Below, in pieces: positions 8,752 to 23,117 of a stretch of DNA of 64,000 nt (its first letter is position 1; each line of letters begins with the position of its first letter). The stretch covers positions 10,447 through 74,446 of the forward strand of contig NZ_JANOWI010000035.1 in assembly GCF_031417815.1 (NCBI RefSeq). Reading direction: 5' to 3'. A program made the position numbers and the translations under genes. Source of the stretch: Novosphingobium sp. (GTDB lineage: Bacteria > Pseudomonadota > Alphaproteobacteria > Sphingomonadales > Sphingomonadaceae). The notes below the pieces were generated by a model. It worked only from the letters and a program-made list of their open reading frames with translations, was not told the origin of the DNA and ran no database searches.

Positions 8752-8770
8752 TTAATTGGCCATTTACCAT
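8752..8770 (+). promoter_or_regulatory. Candidate CtrA-like box upstream of the DUF11 cluster
   Basis: TTAA-ttggcca-TTTACCAT = TTAA-N7-TTAAC with one mismatch; an extra TTAA at 8739-8742. Confidence 0.35.
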
Positions 8771-8791
8771 TCGCTGTCAGTAGAACTGCGG

Positions 8792-10774
8792 ATGGGATCG
8801 CTAGGCGAACATAAACCCGGTCGGCTGCTGGGCCTGAAGCGGATGGCGTTTGCGCTGTTTGCGCTGATGGGGCTTGCCTTGAGCGCTAGCCAGCCGGCGT
8901 CTGCGCAGACCGTCACCCGCTATACCAACAATACCGCCAGCGCGACGAACGGGATCAACAACACTGCAACGCCGTGCTCCAACACACTGAAGCGCACCTT
9001 TGCCGTCGGCACGAGCTACATCGTAAGCGATGTGAACATCGGTGTGCTGCTAACGCACACGGCGCGCGGCGATCTTACGATCACGCTGGTTTCACCAAGC
9101 GGAACGCGCGTGGTGGTTTCAAACCAGGTCGGCGGGACGAAAAACAATTTCAACGCCTTGCTTGATGACTCTGCCGGTACGGCGATCACCGCCTATACCT
9201 TCAACGACACCATCACCGCAGTGCCGCCCTACAACCAGACCCTGCGCCCCAGCAACGCGCTGAGCGTTTTCAACGGCGAACAGGCAGCTGGCACCTGGAC
9301 GCTGGAACTGTGCGATTCGGTTTCGGCGGACAGCGGCACCTTCGACCAGGCCGATCTCTATCTGACCGCGGCCGCGACCAATTATGCTGATCTCTCGCTG
9401 GCGCAGAGCGTGAGTTCAACCACGCCCAACGACCGCACCACCATCACTTACACGCTAACCGTAGCCAATGCCGCAACATCGCCGCAAACCGCCACGGGCG
9501 TGGTGGTGCGCGATCTGCTGCCCAGCGGGGTGATCTTCATCAGCGCCAGCGGCGCGGGAACTTACAATTCGGCAACCGGTGACTGGGCGGTCGGCACATT
9601 GGCTCCTGGCGCCAATGCAGCCCTGACGATCACGGCGACCGTGGCCGCGGGCGACACGGAAAGCGTAGCCAACGCCGCCGAAATCACGGCTTCATCGCAC
9701 ACCGATCCCGATTCAACCCCTAACAACGGCGTGACCGGTGAAGACGACTACGCCAGCACGACGTTCACCGTAGTGGTCAGCCGCAGCGCCGGAACCGCGC
9801 CCACATTGACCTGCTCGGCCGGCACCGGGCAGTTCGATTGGGACAGCCAGGCCTGGACCGCAGGCGCAACATCAGGAAGCTACACCGTCACCGGGGTCGG
9901 AACGGTCGGCTTTGCGATTACCAATCCAAACGGCATATTCCTGAACAACGCGACGTACGGCGGGCAATCACCGGCCAAGCAGACCGCGGTTACAGGCGGG
10001 CTCGGCACAGCGCAGAACTCGCTCGAGCAACTGGTCGACTTGAACAACCAAAGCGCCACGGTTGATACCACGATCACGCTGGGAACCGCAGTTCCAGGCG
10101 CGCAGTTCACGATCTTCGACGTCGATTTCAACACCAACCAGTTTGCCGACAAGGTCACTGTGACTGGCTACCTCAATGGAAATGCAGTCACACCAACGCT
10201 CACCAACGGCACCGCCAATTGGGTCTCAGGCAACAGCGCCTACGGCGATGCCTTATCGAGTGACATCCAGGCCAATGGCAACGTTGTGGTCACCTTCAGC
10301 AGCGCGATCGACAAGATTGTGATCAACTATGGTAACCACAGTTATGCACCAACCAACCCTGGCCAGCAGGGTGTGGCGCTGCACGATATTACCTTCTGCA
10401 AGCCGGTGACCAGCATCAGCGTGACCAAGGTCAGTTCGGTGCTGAACGATCCTGTCAACGGCACCACCAATCCCAAGGCGATCCCCGGCGCGGTGGTCGA
10501 ATATTGCATTCTGGTATCCAATACCGGCACCAATACCCTGAGCAATATCGCTGCGACAGATGCCCTGCCAGCAAACTTCACCTTTACCGCGGGGACGATG
10601 ACATCGGGCATTAGCTGCGCGGCCGCGACCACGGCCGAGGATGATAACAATACCGGAACCGACGAGTCCGATCCTTTTGGCGCGGCAATCAGCGGCACGA
10701 GTTTGACCGCAAGCGCCGCCTCGCTCAGTGCCTCAAGCGGTTTCGCGCTGAAATTTCGCGGCACGATAAACTAG
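8792..10774 (+). CDS. Secreted multi-domain protein: proprotein-convertase P-domain, complete DUF11 domain, central beta domain, C-terminal truncated DUF11 (putative tip adhesin)
   Basis: Signal peptide ..SASQPASA-Q (start 8792 or 8843); P-domain motif THTARGDLTITLVSPSG..GTWTLELCD; DUF11 ADLSLAQ..TYTLTVAN..VVVRDLLP..ESVANAAEIT; C-terminal SVTK..PGAVVEYCILVSN..ATDALP..LKFRGTIN*. Confidence 0.8.
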   Translation: MGSLGEHKPGRLLGLKRMAFALFALMGLALSASQPASAQTVTRYTNNTASATNGINNTATPCSNTLKRTFAVGTSYIVSDVNIGVLLTHTARGDLTITLVSPSGTRVVVSNQVGGTKNNFNALLDDSAGTAITAYTFNDTITAVPPYNQTLRPSNALSVFNGEQAAGTWTLELCDSVSADSGTFDQADLYLTAAATNYADLSLAQSVSSTTPNDRTTITYTLTVANAATSPQTATGVVVRDLLPSGVIFISASGAGTYNSATGDWAVGTLAPGANAALTITATVAAGDTESVANAAEITASSHTDPDSTPNNGVTGEDDYASTTFTVVVSRSAGTAPTLTCSAGTGQFDWDSQAWTAGATSGSYTVTGVGTVGFAITNPNGIFLNNATYGGQSPAKQTAVTGGLGTAQNSLEQLVDLNNQSATVDTTITLGTAVPGAQFTIFDVDFNTNQFADKVTVTGYLNGNAVTPTLTNGTANWVSGNSAYGDALSSDIQANGNVVVTFSSAIDKIVINYGNHSYAPTNPGQQGVALHDITFCKPVTSISVTKVSSVLNDPVNGTTNPKAIPGAVVEYCILVSNTGTNTLSNIAATDALPANFTFTAGTMTSGISCAAATTAEDDNNTGTDESDPFGAAISGTSLTASAASLSASSGFALKFRGTIN

Positions 10775-10924
10775 GATCAAGTTATTCAATCGTGTAAAAT
10801 TATAACTTTATACGGCTAACTTCACGCGTTAGAAAAATCTCCCAATGCAATCGGTTGCAAGGGCAAACCCCTATTGGCTTGTTTCTGAAATATAAGTCTT
10901 TTCTGCGCAGCGGTTTTGCGGTTT

Positions 10925-10944
10925 GTTAACTCGATTGCGTTAAC
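10925..10944 (+). promoter_or_regulatory. Candidate regulator site GTTAAC-N8-GTTAAC at the end of an AT-rich intergenic region
   Basis: GTTAACtcgattgcGTTAAC ending 9 nt before the ATG at 10954; 10775-10953 is markedly AT-rich. Confidence 0.3.
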
Positions 10945-10953
10945 CACGCAGGC

Positions 10954-11940
10954 ATGAAAAACCAAATCGCCCTGCGTGCCGCATCCGGCACCGTCGCCTT
11001 CGTCTCGGCCTGCATGGTCGTCTTGCCGGGCACCGCCCATGCCAGCGGCGTTGCCGCCGGGACGTTGATCCAGAACACGGCTTCGGCCACCTACACCTCT
11101 GGCAGTGCCAGCGGCACGGTCAGTTCGAACACCGTCACCGTCAAGGTCGACGAGCTGCTCGACGTGGCTGTGGCCGGGCTGACGAGCACGCCTGCCGTCG
11201 CCGGATCGAGCAACGTGGTGCTGATCTATTCGGTGACCAATACCGGCAACGGCCCCGAGGCCTTCGACATCGCCGTGAATGCGGCAGTGGCGGGGAACGA
11301 TTTCGACGCCGTGGTCCAGCAGGTCGTGATCGACAGCAACGGCAACGGAACTTACGACCCCGGCATCGATACGGTGCTGGCTACCGGATCACCCACGCCG
11401 GCGATCGCTCCCGATGCCGCGCTGGCGGTGTTCGTGATTGTCAGCCTGCCCGGCACGGCGGCCGATGGCGACACCAGCCAGGTCCAGCTGACCGCGACCT
11501 CAACCACCGGATCGGGCACACCCGGCACAGTCTTTGCCGGCCAGGGCGATGGCGGCGGCGATGCCGTGGTCGGATCCTCAACGGCGACGCAATCGGACAA
11601 CGACGCGCTGATCGCCAGTCTGGCCAGCGTTGCGCTGACCAAGGCGGCCAGCATCGTCGATCCTTTCGGCGGCAGCCAGCCGGTTCCCGGCGCGGTGGTT
11701 ACCTACACGCTTACCGCCACGGTCAGCGGCACCGGTCAGGCCGATAGCCTGCACATCACCGACGTGATCCCGGCAGGGACCGCCTATCAGGCCGGCACCC
11801 TGACGCTCGACAGCGCAGCGCTGAGCGATGCGGCCGATACCGATGCCGGTGAAGCATCGCCGAGCGGGATCGACGTTAACCTTGGCACCGTAGCCGGGGG
11901 CAGCACCAAAACCGTCAAATTCAACGTCAAGATCAACTGA
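10954..11940 (+). CDS. Secreted DUF11-family protein, putative pilin A
   Basis: Signal peptide ending AHA; mature N-terminus SGVAAGTLIQNTASATY..SSNTVTVKV; C-terminal LTKAAS..PGAVVTYTL..ITDVIP..VKFNVKIN*. Confidence 0.8.
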   Translation: MKNQIALRAASGTVAFVSACMVVLPGTAHASGVAAGTLIQNTASATYTSGSASGTVSSNTVTVKVDELLDVAVAGLTSTPAVAGSSNVVLIYSVTNTGNGPEAFDIAVNAAVAGNDFDAVVQQVVIDSNGNGTYDPGIDTVLATGSPTPAIAPDAALAVFVIVSLPGTAADGDTSQVQLTATSTTGSGTPGTVFAGQGDGGGDAVVGSSTATQSDNDALIASLASVALTKAASIVDPFGGSQPVPGAVVTYTLTATVSGTGQADSLHITDVIPAGTAYQAGTLTLDSAALSDAADTDAGEASPSGIDVNLGTVAGGSTKTVKFNVKIN

Positions 11941-11951
11941 GGTAACACGCC

Positions 11952-12425
11952 ATGAAGCGCATCCTTATCGCCACCCTTGGCTCCGTGCTGATTGCCACGG
12001 CACCCGCCGTGGCCGCCGCCCAGACCAATCCTGTCGAGCTGATTGGCGATGTGAAAGTCGACAAGGTAGTTGTTGAAAACGGGAAAGAAAAGCACGTTCT
12101 GGTCGAACCGGGCGTGGTTGTCCCGGGCGATGCACTGCTGTTTACGACGACGTACCGCAATGCCGGGGCCACCCCGATCAAAGACTTCGTGGTCACCAAC
12201 CCGCTGCCCGATGCCGTCCAGCTTGCGCCGCAGGGCGCTGATCAGCTGGTCGTTTCGGTCGATGGCGGCAAGACTTTTGGCAAGCTGACGACACGGCGCG
12301 TTACCGGCAGCGATGGGGCGCCGCGCGCCGCGGTGGAAGCCGATGTAACGCACATTCGCTGGGTCCTGCCGGTGCTGGCGCCAGGCGCGTCGGGCGCACT
12401 TTCCTATCACGCCATCGTCCGCTGA
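11952..12425 (+). CDS. Small secreted single DUF11-like domain protein (putative chaperone/cap)
   Basis: RBS GAGG; signal peptide; VVPGDALLFTTTYRNAG..FVVTNPLP..IRWVLPVLAPGASGALSYHAIVR*. Confidence 0.8.
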   Translation: MKRILIATLGSVLIATAPAVAAAQTNPVELIGDVKVDKVVVENGKEKHVLVEPGVVVPGDALLFTTTYRNAGATPIKDFVVTNPLPDAVQLAPQGADQLVVSVDGGKTFGKLTTRRVTGSDGAPRAAVEADVTHIRWVLPVLAPGASGALSYHAIVR

Positions 12426-12496
12426 CACGGACTGAACCGCCACGACACGCGGGCGGATAATAACGCGGGTCGCAATCGATTACGAGGATAACAATA

Positions 12497-13552
12497 ATGA
12501 ACAGGGTCAACAGATTGCTTGGAACGGCGGGCGCCGCGGCGCTCATTGTCACAAGTGCCAGTCCTGCTCTGGCAGGCGGGACCACTGCGGGAAGCACGAT
12601 CACCAACACGGTGTCCGTGAATTACCAGGTGGGCGGCGTTGCACAGACCGCAACGGGCGCTTCGAATACCTTTACGGTCGACCGCAAGATCAACCTGACG
12701 GTTGCCGAAGTGGGCACCACCACCACGCAGGTGTCACCGGGACAACTGGCCGCGGTGACCACCTTCACGGTGACCAACACTTCGAACGCCGTGCTCGATT
12801 TCGCGCTGGCCGCTGCGCAGCAGAGCGCCGGACCGGGTGCGCATTCGAACACCGACAACTTCGACGTTTCGAACGTCAAGGTCTATGTCGATAGCAACCT
12901 TAACGGCAGCTACGATGCTGGCACTGACCTTGAAGTCAGCTATCTTGACGAACTGGCAGCAGACGCCAGCAAGACTGTCTTCGTGGTTGCCGATGTTCCG
13001 CTTGGCCGCCTCTCCGGCGATGTTGCCGCAGTTACGCTGACCGCAACCGGGCGCGAAGGCGGCGGCGCGGCTGCGCAGGGCGCGGCACTGTCCGAAACCA
13101 CCGGAGCCAATACCTCCGGCATGGATACTGTCTATGCTGATGGCGCTGGCGCAACCGACGGTTCGCGCGATGCGGCCTACTCGGCCAAGGATGACTATAC
13201 CGTCCTTGCAGCGGCGCTGACGATCAGCAAGCTCAGCCGGGTGATCTCGGATCCGTTTAACGGCACCACCAATCCGAAGGCGATCCCGGGCGCGACGATC
13301 GAATACTGCATCGTCGTGAGCAACGCGGCCGGCAGTGCGACGGCGAACACCGTGGCCATCTCTGACCCGCTGCCCAGCACGGTCACCTACGATGGCGGCG
13401 GTGTGTTCATCAACGGCACGGTCACTTCGGGCCTCTGCAACACCGATGGCACCAATGGCGGTTCGCATGCTGCGGGCACGGTCAGCGGAACGCTTTCGAG
13501 CGTCGCGGCGAGCGAAACCAAAACGCTGCGCTTCCGCGCGACGATCAACTGA
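12497..13552 (+). CDS. Secreted DUF11-family protein, putative major pilin B
   Basis: RBS GAGGA; signal peptide ending PALA; mature N-terminus GGTTAGSTITNTVSVNY..ASNTFTV; C-terminal TISKLS..PGATIEYCIVVSN..ISDPLP..LRFRATIN*. Confidence 0.82.
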   Translation: MNRVNRLLGTAGAAALIVTSASPALAGGTTAGSTITNTVSVNYQVGGVAQTATGASNTFTVDRKINLTVAEVGTTTTQVSPGQLAAVTTFTVTNTSNAVLDFALAAAQQSAGPGAHSNTDNFDVSNVKVYVDSNLNGSYDAGTDLEVSYLDELAADASKTVFVVADVPLGRLSGDVAAVTLTATGREGGGAAAQGAALSETTGANTSGMDTVYADGAGATDGSRDAAYSAKDDYTVLAAALTISKLSRVISDPFNGTTNPKAIPGATIEYCIVVSNAAGSATANTVAISDPLPSTVTYDGGGVFINGTVTSGLCNTDGTNGGSHAAGTVSGTLSSVAASETKTLRFRATIN

Positions 13553-13561
13553 ACGAGGTGC

Positions 13562-13593
13562 GGGGCGGCATGACCTGAACGGTCTGCCGCCCC
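13562..13593 (+). terminator. GC-rich stem-loop between pilin B and the large outer-membrane protein (attenuator or mRNA stabiliser; no U-tract)
   Basis: GGGGCGGCA-t-GACC-tgaac-GGTC-TGCCGCCCC. Confidence 0.5.
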
Positions 13594-13615
13594 CTACCGC
13601 AACACCCAAGGGTCG

Positions 13616-16600
13616 ATGGGCGTTTTCCGGCAAATCGGTGTACTCATAGCAGCGCTGGCAGCGCTGCTTTTGTGCGTGCCGTTTGCCCAGGCGCAAACCA
13701 TCACCAATACCGCCGCCGCGCAGTGGAGCGAAGGCGGCCAGAATTTCACCACGCGTTCGAACATGGTCTCGATCACGCTGGCCCAGTCGCAGACGCTGCT
13801 GACCACTTACAAGCCGCTAACTGGCGGGCAGAACTATGGTTACACTGCGGCGAGCTGCGGCGGCAGCACCGTCATCGTACCGGGCGCAACTGCCACTGGC
13901 ACCTCGATCGCGTCGCTGACCCAGACCAGCACGATCCGCGTTGGCGAAGCGCTGTTCTTCAGCCTTTCAGCGCCTTCGGCCAATCTTGACCCGGCGGCGG
14001 TCGACACCCTGGTCGCGACCATCACCACCCAAAGCGGCGACCGCGAAGTGCTGACGATCCGCGAAACCGCGATCAACAGCGGCATGTTCATGGGTGCGAT
14101 CCCGACCCGCGCGATCCCGCCGCAGCCGGTGCAGGGTGATTGCCGCCTCAGCCTGCGTCAGGGCGAAGACATCACCGTCGCTGTTGCCGCAACGGCCAGC
14201 GGCTCGGCCATCGCCACAGCGCAAGTCGACGTACTGGCCGATCCTTATGGCATGGTCTTCGACAGCGAAGACGGACAGCCGGTGAGCGGCGCCCGCGTGA
14301 CTTTGGTCGACGCGCTGACCGGCGCGCCGGCCCGCGTTTTTGCCGATGACGGTGTGACGCCGTGGCCCTCTACCGTCATTTCAGGCCAACCGATTACCGA
14401 TGGGGCCGGCAATGTCTATCCGATGGCACCGGGCGAATACCGCTTTCCGCTGGTTGGCCTGGGCCGTTATCGCCTGGTGGTCGAACCGGCCGCGCCTTAT
14501 ACCGCGCCATCGGCCAAGACCCCGGCCCAGCTGGCGGCGCTGCTTCGTCCCGATGGCAATACTTTCGAGATTGTCGACGCATCGTTCGGGGGAACACTGC
14601 AATTGGCAGGTGCCACCGCGGTGCGGGTTGACATTCCGCTCGATCATCCGCCGTTGGGCGTCACCGTTACCAAGACGGCATCGCGCGCTGTGGCCTTGCC
14701 GGGCGATGTGGTGTTTTACACCGTCACGATCCGCAATCCCGATACGATCAGCGCCAAGCGTACCGTTACCCTGGCCGACAACCCATCGCCCACGCTGCGG
14801 TTACGGCCGGATTCGGTGCGGGTTGACGGCGTTGCCAACCCCGGTGCGGTACAAGCCTCGCCAGATGGCCGCACGCTGACCTTGCAACTTGGCGATATCG
14901 CTGCCGGCGATTCGCGCACCGTCAACTATGCCATGACCATCCGCCCCGATGCCCCAGCCGGCACCGCGCTTAACAAGGCAACCGCTACCGATGCCGCCGG
15001 TCGCAGCGCCACCGCCGGTGCCACGGTGCGGATCGAACGGCAGGATATTGCCGCACGGGTAACGATCATCGGCCGGATTACCGACGGCGGATGCGCGGCC
15101 GATGGCCGGCACAACCCGGTGCAGGGTGTGCGCGTCGTGCTGGAAGACGGTAGCTTCGCCATCACCGATGCCGATGGCCGTTATCACTTCGAAGGCGTTG
15201 TGCCGGGCACGCACGTTGTCCAGGCGCAGCAAAGCACGCTGCCGCAGGGCGGACGCTTTGCCGATTGCAGCCGCTCCACCCGCAGCGCAGGCAGCGCCAG
15301 CTCGCGCTTCGTGATGGCCCGCGGCGGCATGCTGGTGGCCGCGGATTTCAGTGCGAACCTTTCTCATGAAGGCAGCGTAACTGCATCAAAAGCTGCAGTT
15401 AAAATCGCATACGACCCGATTGATGGTTTGCCGATTGCCAATCCAGTTGGTGCAGCTCCGGCACTTGCACCGCGTACCATTCAGGATCCCGCCTCGCTTG
15501 AGCGCGAGCAGCGCCTTTCCGCTGGTGCGGAAACCGATTGGTTCGCCAAGGGTGATGGCCCCAATGCCTTCCTGTTCCCTGCGCCCGATCACAACCCGCG
15601 TGCGCCGGCGATCCGCGTGGTGATCCGCCACCGCGTCGGCCAGACCGTTGATCTGACGATCGATGGCAAACCGGTCGAAAAGCTGTCTTACGAAGGCGCG
15701 CGCCCGGCACCGGGCGGGGGCTATGCTGTTTCGATCTGGCGCGGCATTCCGCTGCCGGGCGAGCAGACCCGCCTGACGGCTGTGGTACGCGATGCAAACG
15801 GCGTCGAAGTTTCGCGGCTGACCCGCACAGTCTATTATTCGGCCAGCCCGGCGCGGATCGAATTCGTGCCCGCTCAAAGCAGCCTGGTGGCCGATGGCAA
15901 GACCCGGCCGGTGCTGGCGCTGCGTATTCTCGATCACAACGGCCGCCCGGTCCATGCCGGCCTGTCTGGTGAGTTTTCGCTCTCCGATCCTTACGAAAGC
16001 GCAGATGCGCTCGATGCGATGCAGCAGCGTCAGCTGGTCGGGGCGGGGCGTCAGGCGCCGCGCTGGCTGGTCAAGGGCGATGACGGCATGGCCTATGTCG
16101 AGCTTGCCCCGACCATGGTCAGCGGCAAGCTCAAGATGGAATTCAACTTTTCCGATGGCCAGCAGCGCCGCCGCCAGGAACTGGAGACCTGGATTGCGCC
16201 GGGCGACCAGCCGTGGACCGTGGTCGGCCTGATCGAAGGCACCGTCGGCAAGCAGACTGTGGCCAGCCAGATGGAGCGTACCGGCCAGTTTGACAGCGAT
16301 CTGGGCGACCGCGCCCGCACCGCCTTTTACGTCAAGGGACCAGTGGGCGAAGGCTTCCTGGTCACTGGCAGCTATGACAGCGCCAAGCAGCGCGACGATG
16401 CGGTGCTGCTCGGCACGATTGATCCGCGGTCCTACTACACCGTCTTCGCCGACGGTTCGGACCGCCGCTTCGATGCTGCCAGCCGCGACAAGTTCTACGT
16501 CCGGGTTGAGAACCGCGGCTTCTATGCACTGTATGGCGATGCCACCAGCGGGTTCGACCAGACGCAGCTTGGCCGCTATCAACGCACCGCGACCGGCTTC

Positions 16601-18727
16601 AAGACCGAGTTCGAAGCGGGCGGCGTGCACCTGCAGGGCTTTGCCGCCAAGGTTTCCAGCACGCATCGCCGTGACGAATACCAGGGCGGCGGGATCTCGG
16701 GCCCCTACCGCCTGTCGAGCCGCGCGATCGTGCCGGGCAGCGAAGTGGTGGCGATCGAAGTGCGCGACCGGTTCCGCAGTGAAGTGATCGTCTCGCGCCG
16801 CACGCTGGTGCGCTATGTCGATTACGATGTGGATCTGCTTTCTGGCACGATCACCTTCAAGGAACCGATCCTCAGCCGCGACGACCAGCTCAACCCGCAG
16901 TTCATCGTGATGGACTACGAAGTTGATGGAGGCGCGGGCGGCGGTGAATGGAATGGCGGGCTGCGCGCCGATGCTACTTTCGCCGATGGCGCGGTACGTC
17001 TGGGCGCCACCGCGATCACCGACACCAGCGCCAATGGCGGTGCCCGCACCGATCTGGTCGCGGTCGATCTGCGCGCCAAACTTGACCGGAACACCGAACT
17101 GCGCGCCGAAGCCGCACGCAGCTACAACGATGGCCGCCACGCCGATGCCTGGCTGGTCGAACTGGAGCACCATTCAGGCAAGGTCGATGTACTCGCCTAT
17201 GTCCGCCAGGCTGCAGACGATTTTGGGCTTGGGCAAAGCAGCGGAGCCGAACTTGGCCGCCGCAAGGTCGGCGTCGACGCCCGCTATCGCATTACCCCGG
17301 ACCTGTCGGTCGCAACCAGCGGCTGGGTTGATGACAGCCTGACCGACGGTTCGCGCCGCATAGCGGTGCAGACCGGGCTCACCTGGCACACCCAGGACGC
17401 CGACGCGCGGGTCGGCGTCACACACTTCGACGATACGCTGGCCGACGGCACCAAGACCAACGCAACGGCGCTCGATGCCTCGGTTGCTCGCCGCTTTTTC
17501 GACAACAAGCTTGAGCTAAGTGTAGCCACCAGTTTTGCCATCGGCGGCTCTGGTTCAATTGACTTGCCCGAACGCCATCGTTTTTCGGCGCGCTATGCCG
17601 TGACGTCCGACATCAAGGTCGTCGGCACCTATGAGATCGCGTTCGGCGACAATATCGATGCGCGCACCGGCCGGATCGGCATCGAAGCCACACCGTGGAC
17701 CGGCGGCCGGTTGACCACCGCAGTGGGCCAGCAGCAGATCGGCGAGCTAGGCAAACGCAGCTTCGCCAATTTCGGGCTGACCCAGTCGATCGCGGTGACC
17801 AAGAACCTCACGCTCGATGCCACGCTCGATTCGAGCAAGACCATCGGCGGGTTCGATCCGGCGCGCCTGATCAATCCCGATCACCCCGCATCAAGCGGCG
17901 GAACGATCGGTGAAAACGGAACTATCGCCGAAGACTACACCGCGATCACGCTGGGCGGTTCGTGGCGTCAGGAACTGTGGAACGCCACTGTGCGCGGCGA
18001 ATGGCGCGAAGGCGATCTGGCCACCCGCAAGGGCGCGACCTTTGGTGTGATCCGCCAGCTGGGCGATGGCCAGATGGTCGGCGGCGGCTTCACCTGGACC
18101 CGCGCCGATGCCGCGGCCGGACTTATGAGCCAGGTCATGGAAGGCTCGCTTGCCTTGGCCAGCCGCCCAGCCGAGAGCGATTTCGCGTTCCTGGGCAAGT
18201 TGCAGTTCCGCTCGGACATCGTCCACGGCGCTGTCGCCGGTGAGGCTGGCCCGGCCGGGCGCGGCGCGCTGCTGGTTGATGGCGATGCCCGTTCCGACCG
18301 GATCGTGTTCAGCCTTTCGGGCGATTGGACGCCGCGCCGCCGGGTTGATGGCGAATGGGTGCAGCGCGACAATCTGGGCTTCTTCATCGCTGCGCGGCAC
18401 AATTTCGATGCTTTCCAGCAATACGATATCGCCGGCACCACTGTGCTGGGCGGGCTCGACGCGCGTTTGGGGCTGGGCGATCACCTCGAACTGGGCGGTA
18501 CCGGCACGGTCCGTTACAGCCTGACCGACAAGACCGCGATCTTCTCCTATGGTCCGCAGATCGGCCTTTCGCCAACCAAAGACGTGCTGCTGCTGGTCGG
18601 CTACAACGTTACCGGGTTCCGCGATCCCGATTTCTCGGGCGCGCGCCAGACCGACGAAGGCGTCTATGCCACGATCAAGATCAAGTTTGATGCCGAGAGC
18701 TTCGGCTTCCTCGGGCTGGGCCAATAA
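13616..18727 (+). CDS. 1703-aa outer-membrane protein: N-terminal Ig/SdrD-B-like and complete DUF11 domains, C-terminal predicted beta-barrel (putative anchor/export platform)
   Basis: Signal peptide ending FAQA; mature N-terminus QTITNTAAAQW..RSNMVSITL; DPYGMVFDSEDGQPVSGARVTL; VTKTAS..PGDVVFYTVTIRN..AGTALNKATAT; ITDADGRYHFEGVVPG; C-terminal half rich in amphipathic beta-strands ending in aromatic residues. Confidence 0.8.
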   Translation: MGVFRQIGVLIAALAALLLCVPFAQAQTITNTAAAQWSEGGQNFTTRSNMVSITLAQSQTLLTTYKPLTGGQNYGYTAASCGGSTVIVPGATATGTSIASLTQTSTIRVGEALFFSLSAPSANLDPAAVDTLVATITTQSGDREVLTIRETAINSGMFMGAIPTRAIPPQPVQGDCRLSLRQGEDITVAVAATASGSAIATAQVDVLADPYGMVFDSEDGQPVSGARVTLVDALTGAPARVFADDGVTPWPSTVISGQPITDGAGNVYPMAPGEYRFPLVGLGRYRLVVEPAAPYTAPSAKTPAQLAALLRPDGNTFEIVDASFGGTLQLAGATAVRVDIPLDHPPLGVTVTKTASRAVALPGDVVFYTVTIRNPDTISAKRTVTLADNPSPTLRLRPDSVRVDGVANPGAVQASPDGRTLTLQLGDIAAGDSRTVNYAMTIRPDAPAGTALNKATATDAAGRSATAGATVRIERQDIAARVTIIGRITDGGCAADGRHNPVQGVRVVLEDGSFAITDADGRYHFEGVVPGTHVVQAQQSTLPQGGRFADCSRSTRSAGSASSRFVMARGGMLVAADFSANLSHEGSVTASKAAVKIAYDPIDGLPIANPVGAAPALAPRTIQDPASLEREQRLSAGAETDWFAKGDGPNAFLFPAPDHNPRAPAIRVVIRHRVGQTVDLTIDGKPVEKLSYEGARPAPGGGYAVSIWRGIPLPGEQTRLTAVVRDANGVEVSRLTRTVYYSASPARIEFVPAQSSLVADGKTRPVLALRILDHNGRPVHAGLSGEFSLSDPYESADALDAMQQRQLVGAGRQAPRWLVKGDDGMAYVELAPTMVSGKLKMEFNFSDGQQRRRQELETWIAPGDQPWTVVGLIEGTVGKQTVASQMERTGQFDSDLGDRARTAFYVKGPVGEGFLVTGSYDSAKQRDDAVLLGTIDPRSYYTVFADGSDRRFDAASRDKFYVRVENRGFYALYGDATSGFDQTQLGRYQRTATGFKTEFEAGGVHLQGFAAKVSSTHRRDEYQGGGISGPYRLSSRAIVPGSEVVAIEVRDRFRSEVIVSRRTLVRYVDYDVDLLSGTITFKEPILSRDDQLNPQFIVMDYEVDGGAGGGEWNGGLRADATFADGAVRLGATAITDTSANGGARTDLVAVDLRAKLDRNTELRAEAARSYNDGRHADAWLVELEHHSGKVDVLAYVRQAADDFGLGQSSGAELGRRKVGVDARYRITPDLSVATSGWVDDSLTDGSRRIAVQTGLTWHTQDADARVGVTHFDDTLADGTKTNATALDASVARRFFDNKLELSVATSFAIGGSGSIDLPERHRFSARYAVTSDIKVVGTYEIAFGDNIDARTGRIGIEATPWTGGRLTTAVGQQQIGELGKRSFANFGLTQSIAVTKNLTLDATLDSSKTIGGFDPARLINPDHPASSGGTIGENGTIAEDYTAITLGGSWRQELWNATVRGEWREGDLATRKGATFGVIRQLGDGQMVGGGFTWTRADAAAGLMSQVMEGSLALASRPAESDFAFLGKLQFRSDIVHGAVAGEAGPAGRGALLVDGDARSDRIVFSLSGDWTPRRRVDGEWVQRDNLGFFIAARHNFDAFQQYDIAGTTVLGGLDARLGLGDHLELGGTGTVRYSLTDKTAIFSYGPQIGLSPTKDVLLLVGYNVTGFRDPDFSGARQTDEGVYATIKIKFDAESFGFLGLGQ

Positions 18728-18787: not shown

Positions 18788-19315
18788 ATGTCAGACAATA
18801 CCGCCGCACCAGCGGCCGAAGTGCCCGGTAAAGTCGCCGGGCTCGCTATTACCGCAATCGTCCTGGTCGTAATCGTCGCCTGGATTGCGCTGTGGATCGG
18901 CGCGCTGAAGTTCACCGATACCACGCTGGTCGGCGGGTTCATGCTGCTGTGGTACTGGGCCAACAACGAAGCGATGGAAATCAAGCGCCTGCCCGCTGCG
19001 ATTATCGGTGCGCTGGTCGGTGTGTTTCTGGCCTGGTTCGTCGTCTACGCCACAATGACCTGGGGCACGAACGGCACGATTGCCGGCGTGTTGCTGATGG
19101 TCATCGCGCTCTATGTCGATGTGATCAAGGCGGTGCCGCTGGCGGTGAATACCTCGACCATGCTGTTCCTCACGCTCGCCGCAGCACCGCTGATCCAGCT
19201 CAAGGTGAACTGGACCGAGCTAGCCTTGAGCATCGTGATCGGTGGCATTTTCTTCGCGGTGCTGATCGAAGGCATCAAGCGGCTGGCAGCAAAGGCTGGC
19301 GGGGCGGCGGCCTGA
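18788..19315 (+). CDS. Multi-pass inner-membrane protein (DUF1097-like, tentative)
   Basis: 175 aa, about five to six hydrophobic segments, GGFMLLWYW motif; family assignment from recall only. Confidence 0.6.
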   Translation: MSDNTAAPAAEVPGKVAGLAITAIVLVVIVAWIALWIGALKFTDTTLVGGFMLLWYWANNEAMEIKRLPAAIIGALVGVFLAWFVVYATMTWGTNGTIAGVLLMVIALYVDVIKAVPLAVNTSTMLFLTLAAAPLIQLKVNWTELALSIVIGGIFFAVLIEGIKRLAAKAGGAAA

Positions 19316-19331
19316 ACGGGGAGGAACTGCA

Positions 19332-19724
19332 ATGCGCATTATCAAAATTCTGGCCGCTGCGGCGGTCTTGCAGCTTTGTCTGGCCCAGCCCGCACTGGCC
19401 GATGAACCCAACTGGGTCCGCGTCACCAACAGCGACAATGGCGAGAGCGAACACTGGATCGACAGCACCTCGCTCAAGCGTAAGGGCGATCTGGTCAGCT
19501 ACCGCGAACGCGCCGAAATCAACGATAGTGATACCGACTGGGCAAGCGTGATCGCCTTTTCGCAGATCAACTGCAAAACTAGCATGGTCCACCCGGTACA
19601 ACTGAACATCACCTACACCAACGGCAAGTCTGAGACGGTCGACAATCCCGATCCCGAAGACTGGAACGCAATCGAGCCGGATTCGGTCGGATCGGACATC
19701 CGCGACTACGTCTGCAAGAGCTGA
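19332..19724 (+). CDS. Small secreted protein resembling the surface-adhesin E family
   Basis: RBS GGAGG, signal peptide (AQPALA-D), W..V..S....HWIDSTSLKRKGDLV..INCKT..DYVCK with a Cys pair. Confidence 0.6.
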   Translation: MRIIKILAAAAVLQLCLAQPALADEPNWVRVTNSDNGESEHWIDSTSLKRKGDLVSYRERAEINDSDTDWASVIAFSQINCKTSMVHPVQLNITYTNGKSETVDNPDPEDWNAIEPDSVGSDIRDYVCKS

Positions 19725-19736
19725 ACCGCCGGCAAT

Positions 19737-19826
19737 TGGCGGACAGGGTGGGATTCGAACCCACGGTGAGCTTTCACCCACGGCGGTTTTCAAGACCGCT
19801 GCCTTAAACCACTCGGCCACCTGTCC
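19737..19826 (-). tRNA. tRNA-Ser (anticodon TGA)
   Basis: Reverse complement GGACAGGTGGCCGAGTGGTTTAAGGCAGCGGTCTTGAAAACCGCCGTGGGTGAAAGCTCACCGTGGGTTCGAATCCCACCCTGTCCGCCA: anticodon loop CTTGAAA, long variable arm, T-loop GTTCGAATC, encoded CCA. Confidence 0.97.
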
Positions 19827-19900
19827 TTGCCAGCGCCGCTAGCCGGTTTGATTGCATGCGGCAATTCCCGAATCGCACAGCCTGTGCGACAAGCGACGTC

Positions 19901-20965
19901 ATGAGCCTGCTGCGGACCATCCGACTTGCCACGCCCCTGGGCATCGCCGCCGCGCTGTTTTCTGCGCCGCAGGGCGGGGCACAGGTGGCCGCGCCCGTCG
20001 TTCAGACGCTGCCGGCGGGGCAGGGGCTGGATTTTTCGGGCTATCTCCAACTGGTCGAGGCCAAGGCCCGGGCGCAAGGGGTCAGCCAGCCGACGATCGA
20101 GCTGATGACGGCGGGGCTGACCTATAATCCCCGCGTGGTGCAGCTTGATCGCGCGCAGCCTGGCAGCAATCCCGGGTCGCCGCCGGCCTTCTGGGCCTAT
20201 TACCGCAGCCACGTCGATGCCGCGCGGATCAATGGCGGACGCAGTGCCATGGCGGCCAATCGCGCGGTCCTGCCGCGGATCGAGGCGCAATACGGCGTAC
20301 CCGCCAAGATGCTGTTCGCGATCTGGGGGAAGGAATCGTTCTATGGCCGCGTCAAAGGCGATTTCGATCTGGCCCGCTCATTGGCCACGCTCGCTTATGA
20401 AGGGCGCAGGCGCGAACTGTTCGAGGGCGAGCTCATCGCGCTGATGCAGATGGCACAGCGCGGCGTTCCGCGCGCCAAGATGGTGGGCAGCTGGGCCGGG
20501 GCGTTTGGCAACCCGCAATTCCTCCCCAGCATCTATCTGCGCATTGCCCGCGACGGTGATGGCGATGGCTTCGCCGATATCTGGAGCAGCAGCAGCGATA
20601 CCTTGGCATCGATCGCCTACTACTTTCAAGATGCCGGATGGCGGGCGGGCGAACCGTGGGGGGTGCGCGTCAGTGCCCCGGCCGGGCTCGATCGCAGCCA
20701 GTTTACCGAACGACTGGAATCACCAAGCTGTCCGCGCGTCCACGCCCGCCATTCGGTGTGGAAGACGGTTGGCGAATGGAAAACGCTTGGCGTCACCCCG
20801 CGTGCGCCGATCGCCGACAGCACCATGGCGGTGCTGTTTGAACCCGACGGCCCGGAAAATGGTTCCTTCCTGTTAACCGGGAATTATCGGGTGATCCTGC
20901 AATATAACTGCTCGAACTACTACGCACTGTCCGTGGGGTTGCTTGCAGATGAGATTGCCCGTTAA
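19901..20965 (+). CDS. Lytic murein transglycosylase (MltB/Slt35-like)
   Basis: AIWGKESFYG, LATLAYEGRRRELF, GSWAGAFGNPQFLPS, DGDGDG EF-hand-like loop, YNCSNYYAL. Confidence 0.9.
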   Translation: MSLLRTIRLATPLGIAAALFSAPQGGAQVAAPVVQTLPAGQGLDFSGYLQLVEAKARAQGVSQPTIELMTAGLTYNPRVVQLDRAQPGSNPGSPPAFWAYYRSHVDAARINGGRSAMAANRAVLPRIEAQYGVPAKMLFAIWGKESFYGRVKGDFDLARSLATLAYEGRRRELFEGELIALMQMAQRGVPRAKMVGSWAGAFGNPQFLPSIYLRIARDGDGDGFADIWSSSSDTLASIAYYFQDAGWRAGEPWGVRVSAPAGLDRSQFTERLESPSCPRVHARHSVWKTVGEWKTLGVTPRAPIADSTMAVLFEPDGPENGSFLLTGNYRVILQYNCSNYYALSVGLLADEIAR

Positions 20966-21905
20966 CAGCCGCCTGCCGCTTGCGGCACTGTTCCTGCTTG
21001 CCGGCTGCGGGGGCGGCGCGCCGTTTCAGGACACGTCGCTTGCGGGCCAGTCGCCCTATGGACCGGCGGGGGATTATCCAGTGGTGGTCGGCCCGGCCTA
21101 TTCGGTCGGCGGCGTTACCTACAGCCCCAGTGATACGATGAATTATGATGTGGTCGGCCGCGCCATTGTCGGCAGCGTCGGCGCCGGGGTAACCGCAGCG
21201 CACCACACCCTGCCGCTGCCAAGCTATGTTGAACTGACCGCGCTTGATACCGGAAAGACCATTCTGGTGCGCGTCGAACGGCGCGGGCCGATGAACGCCA
21301 ACAATGTGATCGAACTTTCGCCAGGTGCGGCAGCCCAGCTTGGCATTGCGGGTCAGCCGCGCGCGCCGGTGCGTGTGCGCCGCGTCAATCCGATTGAACC
21401 GGAACGTGCCGTGCTGCGCATGGGCGAGGCTGCACCCGCCCGGATGGATACGCCCAAATCGCTGCTGACTGTGCTGCAGCGCAAGCTCGATAGCCAGGAA
21501 GGCGTTGTGCGTCCGGTGGTTGAACCGGCACCTCCGCCTGCGCCGACTCCGGCTGCAACCGTTGCGCCGAAACCGAAACCGGCTCAAAGCCCGGCACCCA
21601 AACCTTCACCCAAGCCTTCGCCGAAGCCGGCCCCGACGCCAACCCCGGTTGCCGCGCCGAAGCCTGCGCCAACGCCCGCGCCTGCCATTGCGCCGCGCGG
21701 CCGCTACTATATCCAGGTCGGGACGTTCTCAAACCAGGTCAATGCCAAAGCCGCGGCGGCGAAGACCGGCGGCACGGTGGTGCAATCGGGCAAGTTCTGG
21801 CGCGTGCGGATGGGGCCTTATGCCAACGATGCCCTGGCCAAGGCCGCCTTGGCGAAAGCCCGCGCGGCAGGCTATAGCGACGCCCGAATCCAAAGCGCGA
21901 ACTAG
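20949..21905 (+). CDS. rlpA: Septal ring lytic transglycosylase RlpA-family lipoprotein with SPOR domain
   Basis: Lipobox LLAGC; TAAHHTLPLPSYVELT..RVERRGP; Pro/Lys linker; SPOR YYIQVGTFS..WRVRMGPY. Confidence 0.85.
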   Translation: MRLPVNSRLPLAALFLLAGCGGGAPFQDTSLAGQSPYGPAGDYPVVVGPAYSVGGVTYSPSDTMNYDVVGRAIVGSVGAGVTAAHHTLPLPSYVELTALDTGKTILVRVERRGPMNANNVIELSPGAAAQLGIAGQPRAPVRVRRVNPIEPERAVLRMGEAAPARMDTPKSLLTVLQRKLDSQEGVVRPVVEPAPPPAPTPAATVAPKPKPAQSPAPKPSPKPSPKPAPTPTPVAAPKPAPTPAPAIAPRGRYYIQVGTFSNQVNAKAAAAKTGGTVVQSGKFWRVRMGPYANDALAKAALAKARAAGYSDARIQSAN

Positions 21906-21944
21906 GCGGCTCGCCTCGCTCGTGCCAGCGGCGCGGGGGCAGGC

Positions 21945-23117
21945 GTGAATACCAGATTATTGGCGACGTTGTGCCTGCTGGCCCTGCCCGGGCTGGCACC
22001 GGCCATGACGGTGCAGATACCCGATCCTCCGCGGTGGACGAACCTGCCGCTTCAGACGCAGGCACCAATCGCGCTTCTGGCCGACCTTGGCGCCGGACAG
22101 ATCCTGTTTGCGCGCGATGCCGACAAGCGCCTGCTTCCCGCCTCAATGACCAAGGCGATGACCGCGCTGGTGGCATTCGATTTGATCGAGAACGGCAAGC
22201 TTGACGAAGCGGCGGTGGTTACTATTCGCCCCGAAACCGCGAACCGCTGGGCGGGCAAGGGCGCCACGCTCAACCTGCGGCCTGGCGAACAAGTCCGCAT
22301 CGGCGACCTCTTGATGGGCACCACCACCGTTTCGGCCAACGACGCAGCGGTCGCGCTGGCTGAGGCCGCCAGCGGCTCGGTCGATGGCTTTGTGGCGCAG
22401 ATGAATGCGCGGGCGCTGGTGCTGGGCATGAAGGGCAGCCATTTCGCCAATCCCAACGGCATGCCAGATGGCGGCGCGACCTATGTTACCGCCAACGACT
22501 TGGTGCGGCTGGCCACCGCGCTGATCAAGGATCACCCGGCGCTCTACGCCCGATACTTCGGCAAGAAGACGATGGTGTGGCACGGTGCGCGGATGATAAG
22601 CCACGATCCCTTCGCCGGGGTGCTTCCGGGGGCTGACGGGATCAAGTCCGGCCACACCCGGGAAGCAGGGTTCAATTTCCTCGGCGCGGTTGCGCGTGAT
22701 GGCCGCCGGTTGGTCGTGGTGATCGGCGGCGCACCGTCCGAACCGGCCCGCGCCGCCGCTGCCATGGCGCTGGCCGAATGGGGCTATTCCGCATGGCGTT
22801 CAGCGGCTTTCCTCCCCGCTGGGACTGTGGTCGGTGCGGCCCGGGTGCAGGGCGGCAACCAGCGGACGGTGCCGCTGGTCGTTCCGCACGCCTACGCGCT
22901 GGCTCTGCCGCGCGGGCAACAGCCCAGCGTAACCGGGCGGGTCATTTACACCGGCCCGTTATCGGCGCCGTTCGAAGGCGGCAGACAGGTCGGCCGGTTA
23001 GAGATTAGCGTGCCCGGGCAGCCAGTCCATAGCCTGCCGCTCGTCGCGGGCAACGCGGTCAGTCCGGCGGGGCCAATCGACAGGATCGTCAATGCCCTGC
23101 TAGGGCTGTTCGCATGA
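21945..23117 (+). CDS. dacA: D-alanyl-D-alanine carboxypeptidase (PBP5/6)
   Basis: PASMTK (SxxK), SAN (SxN), GIKSGHT (KxG), C-terminal PBP5 domain. Confidence 0.88.
   Translation: MNTRLLATLCLLALPGLAPAMTVQIPDPPRWTNLPLQTQAPIALLADLGAGQILFARDADKRLLPASMTKAMTALVAFDLIENGKLDEAAVVTIRPETANRWAGKGATLNLRPGEQVRIGDLLMGTTTVSANDAAVALAEAASGSVDGFVAQMNARALVLGMKGSHFANPNGMPDGGATYVTANDLVRLATALIKDHPALYARYFGKKTMVWHGARMISHDPFAGVLPGADGIKSGHTREAGFNFLGAVARDGRRLVVVIGGAPSEPARAAAAMALAEWGYSAWRSAAFLPAGTVVGAARVQGGNQRTVPLVVPHAYALALPRGQQPSVTGRVIYTGPLSAPFEGGRQVGRLEISVPGQPVHSLPLVAGNAVSPAGPIDRIVNALLGLFA

Follow-up and report, generated by a model that had tools for sequence, protein, structure and literature searches.

We find that a five-gene operon of Novosphingobium sp. 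encodes secreted proteins in which an isopeptide-forming domain of the CLIPPER/DUF11 family is split between polypeptide ends. The operon (genes A to E, all co-oriented) lies at positions 8756-18727 on the + strand of the window, by which we mean the whole stretch of 64,000 nucleotides of contig NZ_JANOWI010000035.1 analysed here. At the C-termini of A, B and D this domain retains a Lys and a catalytic Asp and lacks its last hairpin; this hairpin, bearing the Asn of the triad, is found at the mature N-termini of B, D and E. We suggest, with a probability of roughly 0.55, that the five genes supply the components for a surface fibre or stalk that is built on this naturally split domain and is covalently locked between chains. 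The idea goes back to an original prediction, made from the sequence letters, of Lys-Asn cross-links between subunits, and all the codon coordinates that it gave for the Lys, Asp and Asn residues of A, B, D and E are exact.

The C-termini of A, B and D each consist of a CnaA-like DUF11/CLIPPER domain that ends just past strand F and, as had been claimed, keeps both the Lys and the Asp (Table 1). DUF11 (PF01345, cut-off 24.6 bits) scores 107 bits on A, 27.3 on B and 29.4 on the C-domain of D alone, and TIGR01451 (cut-off 24) is exceeded by A, B, D and E, with C just under it at 23.2 bits. The matches are partial: DUF11 covers only positions 11-84 of its 114 in B, and TIGR04226 ('RrgB_K2N_iso_D2, isopeptide-forming domain'; cut-off 30 bits) only positions 17-105 of 123 in D, each match running to the very end of the protein; in all three proteins the matched part of the acceptor domain stops short of the Asn column. 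No C-terminal sorting signal (LPXTG) is found in A, B or D, all of which stop at strand F ('..TIN'). The Asn of this ending was considered as an in-chain bond partner and rejected, as the position is Asn in just 57 (42%) of the 137 diverse full-length representatives (38-72% identity) that make up our conservation sample of the D family.

Protein A is composed of a signal peptide, a P_proprotein domain (Pfam, residues 91-201), a complete DUF11 domain (Pfam, 212-324), a central β domain and the truncated acceptor, and a hidden Markov model (HMM) of the acceptor matches it over residues 552-672, through its last residue. The internal complete DUF11 domain of A (window 9389-9727) has Gln at the site of the reactive Lys (LSLAQS), and because of this replacement it probably forms no isopeptide bond. 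Across the genome, full-length matches to the acceptor HMM that end at a protein C-terminus occur only in A, B, D and one orphan; E and a 1282-amino-acid (aa) protein on another contig (C30) are matched only weakly and internally, as DUF11-type domains. The orphan is a secreted protein of 646 aa encoded at contig C15:62920-64860 on the - strand (locus L096:4921-6861), with GVTK, ATDSLP and the ending '..LYRVTVR' and without a donor hairpin, and it may be a second, alternative tip adhesin of the same fibre, encoded far from the operon. The D acceptor furthermore contains a pair of Cys residues (Cys271 and Cys314; window 13307-13438) that are Cys in 109 and 115 of the 137 homologues and are coupled with a value of 2.02 in direct coupling analysis (DCA). 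An equivalent pair is found in the A acceptor and none at that place in B, and the paired cysteines probably form a disulfide that makes the open acceptor more stable.

A donor-hairpin HMM, run against all 12,216 open reading frames (ORFs) of the genome, matches D (62.5 bits), B (55.9 bits) and E (39.1 bits) and nothing else (next best E value 0.85), in agreement with the earlier assignment of the donor Asn to the N-terminal segments of these three proteins. The C-domain of D alone scores 18.9 bits on TIGR04226; when the mature N-terminus of D is appended to it, the match spans positions 17-122 of 123 with 34.2 bits, and B's N-terminus serves nearly as well (33.6 bits), as compared with 24.5 bits for a reversed and 21.2 bits for a shuffled N-terminus. 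For the C-domain of B the score goes from 25.9 to 40.3 bits with the native N-terminus, and coverage of the Pfam DUF11 profile is extended from 84 to 98-109 of 114 positions. We also built an HMM of the intact domain solely from the complete DUF11 of E and compared each donor with 100 shuffles; here the B donor gains about 10 bits (z = 5-7, equalled by 0-1 of 100 shuffles) and the D donor about 7 bits (z about 3, equalled by 2 of 100). In an hmmalign alignment to the intact E domain, the acceptor Asp lines up with D388, the donor Asn with N453 and the Lys of B with K353, so that the CnaA-like triad (CLIPPER/DUF11, RrgB-D2-type), which the original prediction held to be split between polypeptide ends, occupies the same profile columns as the intact one. 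The mature N-termini (GGTTAGST-ITN, SGVAAGTL-IQN) align on the F-G loop of that domain (PDAPAGTA-LN), with an AGT motif in common. As the mature N-terminus takes the place of this loop and shares its AGT, the domain is cut in the F-G loop.

A natural head-to-tail fusion of two pilins gives the same arrangement within a single chain. In the metagenomic protein P0122 (696 aa) the junction reads '...IRFSVTVN-ASQAPNTS-IANTGSVAY...', that is, strand F of the previous unit, then a loop of exactly the canonical 8 residues, then the hairpin, and TIGR04226 scores 40.6 bits across it (positions 17-123 of 123). For B and D, four tests at the level of sequence thus agree that the N-terminal hairpin is the missing piece of the truncated domain. 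An N-terminal 'RYTNNT' in A was considered as a further donor and rejected, since the donor HMM finds no match in A or in the 35 A-like proteins and the segment gives a z of about 0. Another protein, P0168 (734 aa), has a D-type donor and middle domain fused to an A-type adhesin body. In the PDB, neither D nor the chimera matched any entry by sequence, and Foldseek with the D model returned only generic tandem immunoglobulin (Ig) matches with TM of 0.2-0.4.

The D family comprises 2,609 clusters at 50% identity (E value ≤ 1e-3). The three bond residues, whose conservation the original prediction had put forward as a check, are retained in nearly all of the sampled homologues (Asn37 in 130/137, 95%; Lys245 in 126/137, 92%; Asp290 in 132/137, 96%). 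The complete set is present in 118 homologues, and one alignment column is the common end point of 129 of the 137. The relatives of the other subunits are just as regular, with N41, K230 and D270 of B kept in 75, 78 and 77 of 78, the Lys and the Asp of A each in 24 of 24, and the donor N31 of E in 65 of 68. We sampled 80 Sphingomonadales loci. All four genes B, C, D and E are visible in 68 of them, the other 12 being cut by contig ends, and all 68 follow the B-C-D-E order, if two loci in which C and B have changed places and one in which a frameshift divides E are counted as well. A moves or is missing among these loci. The A-B-C-D-E order, with its residues, is also found in a metagenome-assembled genome labelled 'Deltaproteobacteria', and operons of the same kind occur in other classes of Pseudomonadota. 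The spread is patchy, with a match in 16 of 401 sampled genomes of the phylum. It could be argued that these are ordinary secreted DUF11 repeat adhesins that do not assemble, the motif and the truncated ends being incidental or artefacts of gene calling, and public records do label such proteins only as 'DUF11 domain-containing' or 'hypothetical'. We consider this very improbable in view of the common end column, of a donor motif confined to three operon proteins among all ORFs of the genome, of the completion of the profile by the appended N-terminus and of an operon order conserved across classes.

Triad substitutions were seen in 4 of the 80 loci (among L004-L083), and in all four D keeps the full set. 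The donor Asn of E is replaced by Ser in three of them; in two of these the donor Asn of B is also lost (Ser or Thr), and in one of these two the catalytic Asp of B is Asn as well. In the fourth locus the donor Asn of B is Ser and the Asn of E is intact. These substitutions may be lineage-specific losses of some covalent joints.

Protein C appears to be an acceptor with a disabled triad. When aligned with the acceptor alignment by hhalign (probability 89.5%) it is matched through its last residue, and therefore it is cut at the same place as the acceptors, after strand F. All 74 relatives of C end at the same column. In 72 of these (97%) the Asp column holds Asn, giving TNP instead of TD.P, and the Lys column holds Lys in 37 and Arg in 29. 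C is nevertheless present in every locus long enough to show it. That Asp is replaced by Asn in C suggests that the Asp matters for the function of A, B and D, and, judged from sequence, C is a candidate for a non-covalent chaperone or cap that binds donor hairpins reversibly.

The subunits of the genome thus fall into acceptor-only proteins (A and the orphan), donor-plus-acceptor proteins (B and D), a donor-only protein (E) and the acceptor-like C. Among the 35 A-like proteins in the 80 loci the acceptor is present in 31 and the donor in none, and E has a donor and no incomplete domain, its sole DUF11 being complete. As acceptor-only and donor-only proteins exist, at least some complementation has to take place between chains, namely that of A, the orphan and E. 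That chains complement one another is well supported, and by their domain make-up the tip and base proteins, at the least, need it; acceptor-only, donor-plus-acceptor and donor-only proteins are what a polar chain needs for its tip, shaft and base. For B and D we infer that they, too, pair between chains. The original prediction of pairing between subunits therefore holds for the acceptor-only A and orphan and for the donor-only E, while for B and D an opening is less certain, and the monomer model of D docks its own hairpin.

Support for the complementation that is independent of homology comes from our own mean-field DCA of D (448 sequences, Meff 256), which recovers known contacts such as Cys271-Cys314. 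Residues 41-45 of the D donor strand are coupled both with strand A, through the pairs V41-I243 and V45-A239, and with the strand that bears the Asp, through N42-A287 and V45-A283. These pairs rank 59-172 among 60,031, and this supports completion of the C-domain by the hairpin. Covariation between the donors of B, D and E and the acceptors of A, B and D across the 80 loci gave isolated z values of about 5 that are not robust, there being too little variation. The middle Ig-like domain of D has a conserved DxNxNGxxD loop with the look of a calcium-binding site (window 12890-12928, residues 132-144, DSNLNGSYDAGTD), and pairs within it (D132-D140, N134-T143, N136-T143) are among the strongest in the covariation.

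We suggest the following sequence of events. A, B, D and the orphan would be exported by Sec with a terminal domain made of strands A-F, carrying the Lys on strand A and the catalytic Asp and missing the last hairpin, and B, D and E would start, straight after cleavage of the signal peptide, with exactly that Asn hairpin. The hairpin of one chain would enter the open domain of another (donor-strand complementation) and rebuild the buried Lys-Asp-Asn site, which would then react spontaneously, with loss of ammonia, to give a Lys-Asn isopeptide bond. Since the domain of A, B and D is split over two polypeptides, such a bond, if formed, would link two chains. The resulting polarity would place A, the presumed distal adhesin, or the orphan at the distal end, B and D in the middle and the donor-only E at the proximal end, where E would tie the chain to its own large, β-rich and probably outer-membrane C-terminal domain. 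In the periplasm, C would bind donor hairpins reversibly and so act as a chaperone or cap against premature locking or self-locking. D may homopolymerise, and the product could be either a long polymer or a defined four-piece stalk.

Several observations weigh against this proposal, and they concern B and D, the bond itself, and E in turn. In the AlphaFold monomer model of mature D (pLDDT, the predicted local distance difference test, 97.5; predicted TM score, pTM, 0.87) the protein is compact and its own hairpin (strands 8-15 and 27-34) is confidently placed, with pLDDT of 93-97, which means that a closed, self-complemented B or D is possible. The DCA fits self-complementation equally well, and it leaves the register of the strand ambiguous, with parallel and antiparallel pairing scoring equally. 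It also shows that residues 183-228 of D, earlier read as a linker, pack on the middle domain; both the connection between hairpin and middle domain and the one that leads on to strand A therefore look short, and a closed monomer is sterically plausible. B and D could accordingly be closed two-domain monomers, in effect circularly permuted DUF11 domains with the middle domain inserted between hairpin and strand A and held by an in-chain staple, so that joining would be limited to E and the acceptor-only adhesins, and the product would be an E-A conjugate instead of a fibre. AlphaFold often self-complements pilins, and a 'closed' TafA monomer is described in the tafi paper (PMC11821415). However, a monomer model cannot separate a closed from a swapped form. 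If closed, B and D would furthermore have no obvious part to play in an operon of strictly conserved order, and the conserved, disabled acceptor C would go unexplained; in the P0122 fusion the hairpin follows strand F of the previous unit by way of the canonical loop. On balance we regard closed B and D as unlikely, and favor pairing between chains.

As to the bond, 19 of the 137 D homologues are short of one triad residue, with Lys replaced by Arg in 8 and Asn by Ser in 5, and such members imply that non-covalent variants exist. Donor-strand complementation between chains could then be all that takes place, with Lys, Asp and Asn kept only as polar residues clustered in the interior, where they would make the complemented fold more stable. 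Many DUF11 domains are without the bond residues, according to the CLIPPER survey (PMC12617251), and in the Clostridium perfringens pilin BsaA the oligomers of an N35A mutant are still stable in sodium dodecyl sulphate (SDS) until heated (bioRxiv 10.1101/2024.11.04.621531), so that strand exchange alone can be very stable. A purely structural role of the Asp is hard to reconcile with its near-constant replacement by Asn in C. Also against this reading are the 92-100% conservation of the triad, in a domain whose other positions are down to about 40% identity, and the position of the triad in the columns of a family for which the bond is proven by crystallography (PMC12617251). We therefore think that a fibre held by strand exchange without the bond is improbable, and favor covalent locking.

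As to E, its N-terminus gains nothing significant against the intact-domain HMM (z about 0), so that its status as a donor rests on its likeness to the donors of B and D. In the monomer model this N-terminus has pLDDT of 82-90 and forms four short strands, where we had expected a floppy end. The last approximately 850 residues (nucleotides 16163-18724) are β-rich and have no relative in Pfam or the PDB, searched both with the single sequence and with a profile. No transmembrane helix is found in this C-terminal region. Its period-2 amphipathic β segments number 25, compared with 15.9 ± 3.1 for shuffled sequences; this amphipathicity count (z about 3), the one line of support for a barrel, is a crude measure. 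From these features an outer-membrane barrel is plausible, and E is presumed to be the outer-membrane anchor and possibly also the pore of an export route. As had been noted in the original prediction, the complete DUF11 domain of E has all three residues in cis, and it is only here, and not in the acceptors of A, B and D, that the triad lies within one contiguous domain of one chain. TIGR04226 matches this copy over positions 4-119 of 123 with 32 bits, and across 67 homologues of E neither K353 nor D388 varies, with a conservation of at least 90% for N453. The N-terminal 454 residues are modelled as a stalk, and the closest solved folds are the isopeptide pilins BcpA (E value about 1e-10), RrgB, EbpB, SpaD and SpaA of Gram-positive bacteria and the CLIPPER structure 9IFR.

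Table 1. Proteins of the operon and positions of the parts of the split domain (nucleotide positions in the window).
Feature	Position	Strand	Remarks
Protein A, 672 aa	8756..10774	+	start possibly 8792 or 8843 instead
Protein B, 328 aa	10954..11940	+	donor-plus-acceptor subunit
Protein C, 157 aa	11952..12425	+	signal peptide and a single acceptor-like DUF11 domain
Protein D, 351 aa	12497..13552	+	donor-plus-acceptor subunit, best conserved; presumed shaft
Protein E, 1703 aa	13616..18727	+	signal peptide, donor-only N-terminus, Ig-like stalk, β-rich C-terminal part
A acceptor	about 10394-10771	+	K558 at 10427 (SVTK), D602 at 10559 (ATDALP)
B donor hairpin	11044-11157	+	N41 at 11074 (IQNT)
B acceptor	11602-11937	+	K230 at 11641 (ALTK), D270 at 11761 (ITDVIP)
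D donor hairpin	12575-12694	+	N37 at 12605 (ITNT)
D acceptor	13190-13549	+	K245 at 13229 (TISK), D290 at 13364 (ISDPLP), Cys271-Cys314 pair
E donor segment	13694-13795	+	N31 at 13706 (ITNT)
E complete DUF11	14646-15055	+	K353 (14672), D388, N453 (14972); whole triad in one chain

All five proteins have Sec-type signal peptides. Pfam and NCBIfam recognise in them DUF11/CLIPPER-clan domains, a P-domain (A) and CarboxypepD_reg (E) and nothing else; no usher, PapD, sortase or peptidase was matched in A-E. The claim that polymerisation would do without sortase agrees with the genome (assembly 95.8% complete), from which PF04203 is absent. Neither PF00345 nor PF00577 is found by Pfam in C or E, and the only usher and PapD_N matches of the genome belong to a classical chaperone-usher pair that is unlinked to the operon (contig C44:34499-37327, - strand; Usher PF00577 47.8 bits, PapD_N 30 bits). 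A scan for promoters and terminators gave no signal beyond chance. A dihydrolipoamide dehydrogenase gene is located upstream of the operon, and the region 3′ of E (window 18788-23117) encodes two small proteins, one of the membrane and one secreted, and, from three cell-wall genes, a lytic transglycosylase-like protein, an RlpA/SPOR-like protein and a D-Ala-D-Ala carboxypeptidase.

If the bond forms, covalent polymerisation of pili would not be limited to the sortase systems of Gram-positive bacteria. In a recent broad review the donor-strand fibres of Gram-negative bacteria are still described as entirely non-covalent (PMC13721041), and our searches of the accessible literature, including a 2026 review, turned up no account of a split CLIPPER domain or of a covalent donor-strand fibre in outer-membrane bacteria. 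Should our proposal hold, it would describe a new assembly principle, a click chemistry of split domains, for a family of more than 2,600 clusters at 50% identity, and would give a function to thousands of proteins that now carry uninformative labels. Tentatively, and with some doubt, we extend the idea to a widespread and undescribed class of pili in outer-membrane bacteria, free of both sortase and chaperone-usher, in which every junction would be a spontaneous Lys-Asn bond, the fibre would be covalently tied to the cell through E, a dead acceptor (Asp to Asn) would serve as chaperone, and the whole would amount to a natural library of orthogonal tag/catcher pairs. The hairpins and domains would then be naturally evolved pairs for protein ligation, probably specific for their partners, and C a natural non-reactive decoy that offers a design idea for controlling ligation reactions. 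A likeness to SpyTag/SpyCatcher had been pointed out in the original prediction. SpyTag/SpyCatcher derives from a CnaB domain with a Lys-Asp bond; the likeness is sound as a functional analogy, whereas the set found here is the Lys-Asn one of CnaA-like domains.

One of the closest known systems is the CLIPPER domain itself, the new name for DUF11, for which an intramolecular Lys-Asp-Asn isopeptide bond has been shown by crystallography in a Gram-negative adhesin (structure 9IFR, triad Lys715-Asp748-Asn806; PMC12617251). By profile (PF01345, TIGR04226) the domains described here belong to the same family, with the Lys on strand A, the Asp and the Asn on a late strand in the same columns, and the internal copy of E is a complete member whose model resembles 9IFR (TMt 0.67) and the pilins BcpA, RrgB, EbpB and SpaA. 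Unlike in that adhesin, the F-G loop is where the domain of A, B and D is interrupted, the strand with the Asn being located on the N-terminus of another polypeptide, and the published survey takes in intramolecular bonds only (PMC12617251).

A functional parallel is BsaA of Clostridium perfringens, for which donor-strand exchange followed by an intermolecular Asn-Lys lock has been established by mutagenesis (bioRxiv 10.1101/2024.11.04.621531). As in our proteins, where the correspondence is at the sequence level, the Asn is on the N-terminal donor strand and the Lys and an acidic catalyst are on the acceptor, and the reaction is autocatalytic and needs no sortase, as we propose here. BsaA is, on the other hand, a non-homologous protein of the TasA-type fold, from a Gram-positive organism, secreted in a SipW- and type IV pilus-linked manner into a homopolymer with no outer-membrane component. 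We looked for a TasA/camelysin fold and SipW in the operon and found only the DUF11 clan in Pfam, models that resemble CnaA/CnaB pilins, and no peptidase gene among A-E. The archaeal thread Saci_0406 (PMC9715654) likewise combines donor-strand complementation with a proposed covalent link between subunits, but there the link is from the N-terminal α-amine to an Asn of subunit n+2, and neither a Pfam domain nor a Lys-Asp-Asn triad is present in the archaeal protein.

Chaperone-usher pili (Fim, Pap and the archaic Csu/CupE) share with the fibre proposed here Ig-like subunits that lack their final strand and would receive it from the N-terminal extension of the next subunit, an acceptor-only tip adhesin, and an operon that combines a small periplasmic Ig-like helper with a large, here presumed, outer-membrane protein. 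They differ in that C and E match no PapD or usher profile, that two strands would be donated here instead of one, that the anchor is donor-only and that covalent locking is predicted, where chaperone-usher fibres are entirely non-covalent (PMC13721041). The engineered pairs SpyTag/SpyCatcher, SnoopTag/SnoopCatcher and DogTag/DogCatcher (PMC6539128, PMC8878318) resemble the proteins described here in consisting of a hairpin or peptide with one reactive residue and a truncated Ig-like domain with two, and they ligate spontaneously on docking. These pairs were, however, obtained by cutting domains of Gram-positive adhesins in the laboratory, whereas in the present operon the cut appears to be natural, to lie at gene boundaries and to be used for assembly.

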